DNA of 64,000 nucleotides, from NCBI RefSeq assembly GCF_030013205.1, contig NZ_CP122648.1; one strand, written 5' to 3'. The translations under genes and the position numbers were made by a program. Origin of the DNA: Escherichia coli (GTDB lineage: Bacteria; Pseudomonadota; Gammaproteobacteria; Enterobacterales; Enterobacteriaceae). Position 1 is the first letter of the stretch. Each line of letters opens with the position of its first letter. The notes under the pieces were generated by a model. That model was not told the DNA's origin. It worked only from the letters and a program-made list of their open reading frames with translations, and did no database searches. Below, piece by piece: positions 19,875-20,272 of this stretch.

Positions 19875-20272
19875 TTATTTTATTTTATTTGCAGTTTCAA
19901 TGCAATCAGCGGCAAGTTGGTGTGAATTTAGATTTTTCAGATATGGTCTTATGATCTTTCCCTTACTTAATAAATAGCATGTATAGGATTCGTAAAGTCC
20001 AGCATCTATTTTGTACCTCATTATATTAGATAAGGATGTGAGAAATTCCTTGTTATCATTCGCAGTCATATATGCCAGTCCGAGTTCAGCCTCTGCGGCC
20101 TTACAGGAAAAATAGCTAAGTGAACACGCTTTTCGTCCCTCTTTAGTACTGGCTGATATTAGTGCCCATAATATTGCTTTGTCTGCCAAATCTAACTCTC
20201 TCTGAAATTGTCTTGCAGTAAATGCACTCGCAGAAATAGAGAAAAAAATACAATTGTTAATAACTTTGCCAT
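19875..20272 (-). pseudogene. orphan Rhs-associated immunity-like gene with N-terminal signal peptide, frameshifted in an A7/T7 run
   Basis: ATG at 20272 encodes MAKLLTIVFF; the frame shifts in the homopolymer at 20242..20248 and continues as the 104-aa ORF ending at 19875. Confidence 0.55.

Follow-up and report, generated by a model that had tools for sequence, protein, structure and literature searches.

Polymorphic toxin systems carry orphan toxin and immunity cassettes arrayed downstream of the main gene. Imm57 proteins have been tied by comparative genomics to toxins of the Tox-LD-peptidase type, for which they are the predicted immunity partners (PMC3482391); a literature search for experimental papers on Imm57 found none. 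The Tlde1 (Tae5)/Tldi1 pair of the Salmonella T6SS shares its toxin domain family, DUF2778/Tlde1 (PF10908), with the E. coli locus described here. Effectors of this family act on periplasmic peptidoglycan, and the immunity proteins of two of three effector families, Tai5 and Tai6, carry Sec signal peptides (bioRxiv 10.1101/2020.02.18.954545). The Salmonella immunity protein also has an N-terminal Sec signal but belongs to DUF2195 and not to Imm57 (bioRxiv 10.1101/2020.02.18.954545). The Salmonella effector is a stand-alone protein and not the C-terminus of an Rhs protein, and the activities of the E. coli pair are predicted from sequence. Within E. coli, an intact pair is found in Ec73552, where a 1392-aa RHS core protein is followed by the immunity protein WP_000113245.1; in intact Rhs-Tlde1/Imm57 pairs the Imm57 gene begins 4 to 8 nt past the toxin stop codon. 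The yibV region of K-12, at the rhsA locus, is annotated in RefSeq as ‘Imm57 family immunity protein, frameshifted’. The gene yibV itself remains among the uncharacterised genes and is described as ‘surrounded by pseudogenes’ (PMC11551758).

We analysed a 64,000-nucleotide stretch of E. coli DNA (the window), in which the features given coordinates below lie on the minus strand. The feature of interest is an Imm57-family immunity pseudogene of 523 nt at 19750..20272, its bounds being set by the annotation of strain K_EC180 and by alignment to intact alleles, which are 522 nt long and encode 173 aa. K_EC180 matches the window without a difference over 901 nt (100% identity), and in the interval equal to window 20272..19750 RefSeq/PGAP annotates ‘Imm57 family immunity protein; frameshifted; internal stop’. 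On the reading to which we give a probability of about 0.85, this feature no longer functions: it is what is left of an orphan immunity gene of the Imm57 family that forms the final module of a degraded rhs element beside yhhJ/rbbA. RefSeq already lists it as an Imm57-family pseudogene, and the feature is a common E. coli pseudogene that was already known. The family assignment relies on a 104-aa open reading frame (19875..20189, TTG start at 20189), which matches the Pfam profile Imm57 (PF15596) over positions 1–100 of 100 with 155.1 bits (E = 6e-46; cut-off 25 bits) and so contains the complete domain. An intact allele scores 160.4 bits against the same cut-off of 25. The preliminary description, made from the letters of the DNA, had called the gene immunity-like; it is a genuine member of the Imm57 family. 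In a scan of NCBIfam no family model matched the Imm57 protein and none matched the Tlde1 toxin, and a sequence search of the PDB with these two proteins gave no meaningful match.

Intact genes encoding 173 aa are present in AJ5, ABW_A19, ST2747, O121:H19, O157:H16 Santai, O6:H16, XH990, NCTC9064, PSJ-14, 6409 and Ec73552. Each begins at the ATG seen in the window and stays in one frame, an example being MAKLLTIVFFFSISASAVTARQFQRELDLADK…IKCIDE, and the N-terminus that the intact alleles read from this ATG is MAKLLTIVFFFSISASAVTARQ... A word-indexed protein search gave matches almost only in Escherichia/Shigella, plus one metagenomic homologue, P0039, at 52% identity. P0039 is also 173 aa long and in a single frame, with a hydrophobic, signal-peptide-like N-terminus; it keeps six of the six cysteines and the 45-residue C-terminal tail. 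A hydrophobic N-terminal core is present in every homologue compared. It had been proposed that the upstream ATG would be irrelevant if intact homologues started at a different site. They do not: the same ATG is used, and the signal-peptide-like N-terminus is retained even at 52% identity.

Translation of the window from the ATG at 20272-20270 gives MAKLLTIVFFSLFLRVHLLQDNFRES, closed by a TAG at 20194-20192, and confirms the MAKLLTIVFF start that had been reported for this frame. The original frame with its signal-peptide-like N-terminus (20192..20272) thus stops after 26 codons, having been thrown off by a run of seven T residues at 20242..20248 (A7 on the plus strand); the codons between this T7 run and the TAG are out of frame. 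The −1 frame reads through the run (..NNCIFFSISASAFTARQFQRELDLADK..) and includes the 104-aa open reading frame, which is without both the signal peptide and the C-terminal tail. The run is exactly 7 nt long, and the closest intact alleles, from ABW_A19, O121:H19 and others, have T8 at this position and a continuous frame from the same ATG. The window has therefore lost one T, and the arrangement of the two frames is not due to chance. The frame change had been placed inside this homopolymer from the start, and that placement is correct. The proposed continuation of the gene as the 104-aa frame holds in so far as the −1 frame contains no stop codon at the run; the gene, however, ends at 19750 and not at 19875.

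The 104-aa frame ends early because of a second lesion, absent from the preliminary description and located at about 19861..19890 by alignment and by tabulation of runs, in A-rich low-complexity DNA. Here the window has two extra copies of AAAAT (+10 nt) and a deletion of 8 nt, a net gain of 2 nt. The 3′ part reads …AAATAAAATAAAAGATAAGAATAAAAAAATC… in intact alleles and …AAATAAAATAAAATAAAATAAAAGATAAAAATC… in the window. The change creates an in-frame TAA at 19877-19875 which terminates the 104-aa frame and cuts off the conserved tail. A remnant of the tail, ending in IIDINSVNICSDDKNIKLRVNSTIIAIDDSIKCIDE, is recognisable by alignment to intact alleles at 19750..19860 in a third reading frame; the natural stop codon of the gene is at 19752-19750. 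This tail and its two Cys residues are conserved in the 52%-identical homologue. The signal peptide, the Imm57 domain and the conserved tail are now each encoded in a different frame, and the window copy, which has lost 1 nt from the T8 tract and acquired a premature TAA, is not a complete translatable coding sequence.

The K-12 yibV region and the window copy are closely alike. They belong to the same family, have the same T7 lesion in the same ATG-proximal tract, both have yibG and a degraded Rhs-CT/Tlde1 module upstream, and share 97.3% DNA identity over 900 nt, with about 20 substitutions within the gene. They differ in location and in the second lesion. The window copy is at an rhsB-type locus beside yhhJ/rbbA and an ISAs1 remnant, whereas the K-12 copy is beside yibH; where the window has the AAAAT expansion and the 8-nt deletion with its stop codon, K-12 has a frameshift from A7 to A8. 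Since K-12 has both T7 and A8, its copy contains two frameshifts. We note that the rhs element of the window sits at an rhsB-type site while its orphan array resembles the tail of K-12 rhsA. The Ec73552-type module shares its order with the window: Rhs core end, DPLGL motif (DPLGI in the window), Tlde1 and Imm57. The Ec73552 toxin is intact, and its immunity allele has an interrupted tract (GTG CTT TTT TTC) and a single frame; the window has a start-less, frameshifted toxin fragment and an immunity gene with two lesions.

The module directly upstream of the immunity pseudogene (20278..20862) consists of an Rhs core end, the DPLGI motif and a Tlde1/L,D-peptidase-like domain, and is degraded. 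PGAP annotates the part at window 20862..20644 as ‘RHS repeat-associated core domain-containing protein; internal stop; incomplete’. The open reading frame at 20278..20571 gives weak matches to Tlde1_dom and YkuD, the Tlde1 match (E = 8.5e-4) being below the Pfam cut-off. Compared with the intact 135-aa tlde1 of AJ5, the orphan toxin has no start codon, has a 9-nt and a 1-nt deletion, and carries Tyr (TAT) in place of Cys (TGT) in the HSC motif; this substitution and both deletions are also seen relative to the intact toxin of PE164. In AJ5, PE164 and Ec73552, and at the locus of P0039, whose gene directly follows an open reading frame with a Tlde1 domain, the toxin domain upstream of the immunity gene is intact. 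The description of the gene as an orphan is thus borne out, since its upstream toxin module has decayed to an Rhs-CT/Tlde1 fragment, and a dead Tlde1-type Rhs-CT in this position supports the idea of an orphan immunity gene in decay.

Further upstream of the orphan toxin are an intact yibG (Sel1-like) and an IS1 (insA/insB, 21494..22191), the latter immediately downstream of the rhs C-terminal region. The IS1 parts the main rhs gene from the array of yibG, orphan toxin and Imm57. The main rhs core gene (22220..26364) is split into 1006 aa and 386 aa by a 16-nt deletion at about 23392/23393; the missing AGTCGCTATCTTTACG is found in K-12 RhsA and in ST2747, and the deletion is not at a homopolymer. 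In K_EC180, PGAP annotates this gene as ‘RHS element core protein, frameshifted’. On the other side, a truncated transposase pseudogene of the ISAs1 family (H-repeat) lies between the Imm57 pseudogene and yhhJ, at 19177..19575 in the K_EC180 PGAP annotation (open reading frame 19141..19575), and bounds the element towards yhhJ/rbbA. Taken together, the deletion in the rhs core gene, the IS1, the truncated ISAs1 and the dead toxin indicate that the whole element is degraded. Toxin-fragment and immunity cassettes with interspersed IS elements resemble the orphan cassettes described after rhs and cdi genes (PMC3482391). With both members of the terminal cassette inactivated, the window’s cassette would have no role as a reservoir unless repaired. 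A scan of 19600-21500 for promoters and terminators gave 7 promoter-like sites, against 9.4 expected from shuffled sequence, and 0 terminators.

A second Imm57 gene is present in K_EC180 and is intact (WP_000197506.1, chromosome 144656-145177); it is at the rhsA/yibH locus and has an interrupted tract (TTTTCTT). All 18 genomes with the window-type allele have two matching places.

By megablast of the region, the Imm57 gene occurs in 3690 of 5426 complete E. coli genomes and is always chromosomal. Tract length was scored with queries of 94/95 nt, for which the 99% identity band is reached by exact matches only. The K-12-like segment is present in 3381 genomes, 3194 with an exact T7 match, including many K-12 assemblies, and 69 with an exact T8 match; T7 is close to fixation across phylogroups. 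Of the genes sampled, six of six with T8 are annotated as intact (under four different protein accessions) and six of six with T7 as frameshifted. The two lengths can differ between otherwise identical genes, as in the T8 allele of O121:H19/NCTC9064 and the T7 allele of O157:H7, which show 0 substitutions over about 1060 nt.

The window’s own allele group comprises 18 genomes, mostly pig ETEC/O139:H1, about 8 of them T7 and 10 T8; four of these assignments were checked at sequence level and the remainder were inferred from match length. Six genomes, from pig or wild-boar strains including K_EC180 (Korea), O139:H1 and several ETEC, are by match length identical to the window (T7). Two have the same length and one SNP (T7): ETEC4068, which was checked in sequence, and ETEC4075, which has the same match length and identity. 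Seven are one base longer (T8; CFSAN018748 and ETEC1748 checked in sequence), and three are six bases longer, with T8 and one more AAAAT (EC556 checked in sequence). The T8 siblings CFSAN018748, ETEC1748 and EC556 show 0 substitutions from the window. Run length thus varies between very close strains, which answers the comparison among relatives that the preliminary description had suggested. The 3′ lesion is common to every window-type genome examined at sequence level; it is therefore the older of the two, and T7 is recent on otherwise identical sequence. The extra AAAAT unit of EC556 aligns to window ~19871-19890, and EC571 and EC581 are alike by match length; the pentanucleotide repeat is thus unstable within the clade too.

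A third background is given by PE164 (T7) and ABW_A19 (T8), which are 2 substitutions apart. The presence of both lengths on three haplotype backgrounds implies that tract length changed, or was altered by short gene conversions, at least three times independently, and identifies the tract as a recurrent slippage hotspot. In a divergent allele group, which carries 32-41 substitutions in the gene, the run is interrupted (GTG CTT TTT TTC or …CTT TTC TTC), and each of the three genomes sampled has an intact gene. Relative to these alleles T8 arose by two point substitutions, and the frameshift is the loss of one T. We considered a dN/dS analysis of T7 alleles and dropped it, since no more than 0-3 substitutions in the gene separate the K-12-like T7 alleles from the T8 ones, which would leave the test without statistical power.

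From these comparisons the following history can be proposed. The intact 173-aa protein, with its signal-peptide-like N-terminus, Imm57 domain and conserved Cys-containing tail, would be exported to the periplasm, where it is predicted to neutralise a Tlde1-type toxin carried on an Rhs C-terminus, that toxin being a putative L,D-peptidase-like enzyme acting on peptidoglycan. In the window’s allele group two substitutions (GTG CTT to GTA TTT) would have made an uninterrupted T8 within the signal-peptide codons, and replication slippage may then have deleted one T, giving T7. We infer slippage as the mutational mechanism. The loss would leave the Imm57 domain out of frame with its start codon and signal peptide. 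In the window lineage T7 would be recent and superimposed on an older 3′ lesion, itself probably due to repeat slippage.

The window copy is, judged from its sequence, very likely inactive, since T7 strips it of its start and export signal and the 3′ lesion strips it of the Cys-containing tail. Selection on this copy is probably relaxed: the cognate toxin is dead, the main rhs gene is frameshifted, and K_EC180 has an intact Imm57 gene at rhsA. The preliminary description had offered pseudogenisation or phase variation as outcomes of slippage and had leaned towards decay; the second disabling lesion, the degraded rhs element and the intact paralogue in K_EC180 make decay the better of the two. 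Some observations fit decay less well. The full Imm57 domain is still open in the 104-aa frame with a possible TTG start, so that a cytoplasmic fragment could be made, and the K-12 counterpart yibV has been detected as a transcript. Some run lengths from long-read assemblies could be errors, though each state recurs in independent projects. In PE164 (positions 830-5534 of the retrieved sequence), and identically in E105 and F2_81, a full-length 1392-aa Rhs-Tlde1 open reading frame that retains the catalytic H…C motif precedes an Imm57 gene frameshifted by T7; in Ec73552 a toxin of this type stands beside an intact immunity gene. An intact toxin frame beside a T7 gene is unexpected if T7 abolishes immunity, unless rhs/T6SS is silent, and this combination is the best reason for asking whether T7 alleles retain some function. 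A toxin that acts in the periplasm is harmless in the cytoplasm of its producer and rhs/T6SS may be silent, so the combination of intact toxin and broken immunity is viable.

Long-read assemblies commonly miscount homopolymers, and T7 and T8 are both found among near-identical pig ETEC assemblies, so the tract might be T8 in reality and T7 a sequencing error. The exact window T7 sequence, however, recurs in six genomes including K_EC180, and T7 is found in 3194 genomes including K-12; ETEC4068, with T7 and a SNP, and ETEC4075, with the same match length and identity, hint at real shared ancestry. Because the T7 sequence recurs in six genomes and T7 is the state of 3194, we rejected assembly error, which we regard as extremely unlikely. 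If the two lengths are real, they could form a reversible ON/OFF contingency switch of the orphan immunity protein, kept because it is useful. The run does vary with otherwise identical gene sequence on three haplotype backgrounds, with 0 substitutions separating the two states both in the window clade and on the K-12-like haplotype, and the clade’s split of about 8 T7 to 10 T8 among 18 genomes, four of them sequence-checked, is what such a switch might produce. We nevertheless consider this phase variation quite unlikely. Seven to eight A/T bases are short for a classical contingency tract. A T8 gene of the window clade, nominally ON, would still end at the 3′ TAA without the tail that is conserved at 52% identity. 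The A7/A8 tract and the AAAAT repeat vary as well, as neutral slippage in AT-rich DNA predicts, and in the divergent clade, whose tract is interrupted, the gene was intact in every one of the three genomes sampled.

The frameshift could also be overcome in expression, if −1 ribosomal frameshifting or transcriptional slippage on U7/T7 yielded a low level of protein with the T8-type N-terminus (MAKLLTIVFFFSIS..). A tRNA-Phe slipping by −1 on UUU UUU re-pairs perfectly and would restore the intact protein sequence; T7 is the majority state (3194 genomes), and three genomes pair a full-length Rhs-Tlde1 frame with a T7 immunity gene. Against such recoding, the homologues (the divergent alleles and the 52%-identical homologue) are in a single frame and the two-frame layout is not conserved, a product of slippage in the window would be cut short by the TAA at 19877-19875 all the same, and the additional A8 frameshift occurs in about 30% of genomes. 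No stimulatory structure was found in the 72 nt past the tract, which fold less stably than shuffled controls (z = +1.33), and inspection revealed no Shine-Dalgarno-like element between the ATG and the run. With no structure, no such element and single-frame homologues, a programmed frameshift was rejected as the main reading, and we judge recoding of this kind highly improbable. The broader idea that the uninterrupted T tract is a slippage-dependent expression device, by T7/T8 switching or by low-level −1 decoding, and not a dead lesion, seems to us very unlikely. Were it true, it would account for the near-universal T7, for the open Imm57 frame and for the strains with an intact toxin and T7, and an orphan anti-Tlde1 immunity would be retained cheaply. 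The reading of the window copy as a decayed remnant is the one we retain.

The locus has little value for discovery, as RefSeq already annotates the gene and its K-12 counterpart is a long-known locus. The comparison does explain yibV (b4615) of K-12, which is an internal fragment of a frameshifted Imm57 immunity gene, and so takes one entry off the y-ome. The recurrent T8/T7 change on several haplotypes is the sole element that is mildly new: the tract offers a natural slippage hotspot at which a base appears to have been lost from T8 on three or more haplotype backgrounds, each time independently, while interrupted alleles stayed intact. The lineage of PE164, E105 and F2_81 would provide a cheap test case for silent toxins versus residual protection by T7 alleles.

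Slippage also marks a second homopolymer, some 400 nt past the ATG in K-12-like alleles and corresponding to about window 19861-19870. There, 2127 genomes have A7 and 999 have A8; the A8 frameshift is thus present in about 30% of genomes and A7 is kept in 63%, A5 and A6 being rare. Every intact K-12-like (T8) allele examined has A7. This drift between A7 and A8 is consistent with continuing slippage-driven decay. With T7 nearly fixed and A7 kept in 63%, decay after the first frameshift has been slow, or the lesion is young. We also considered an A5 variant, which in one genome looked like a feature of O157:H7, and set it aside as rare: the band of at least 99% identity contained 6 genomes, with only 2 exact full-length matches among those listed, and the variant may be strain-specific or an error.
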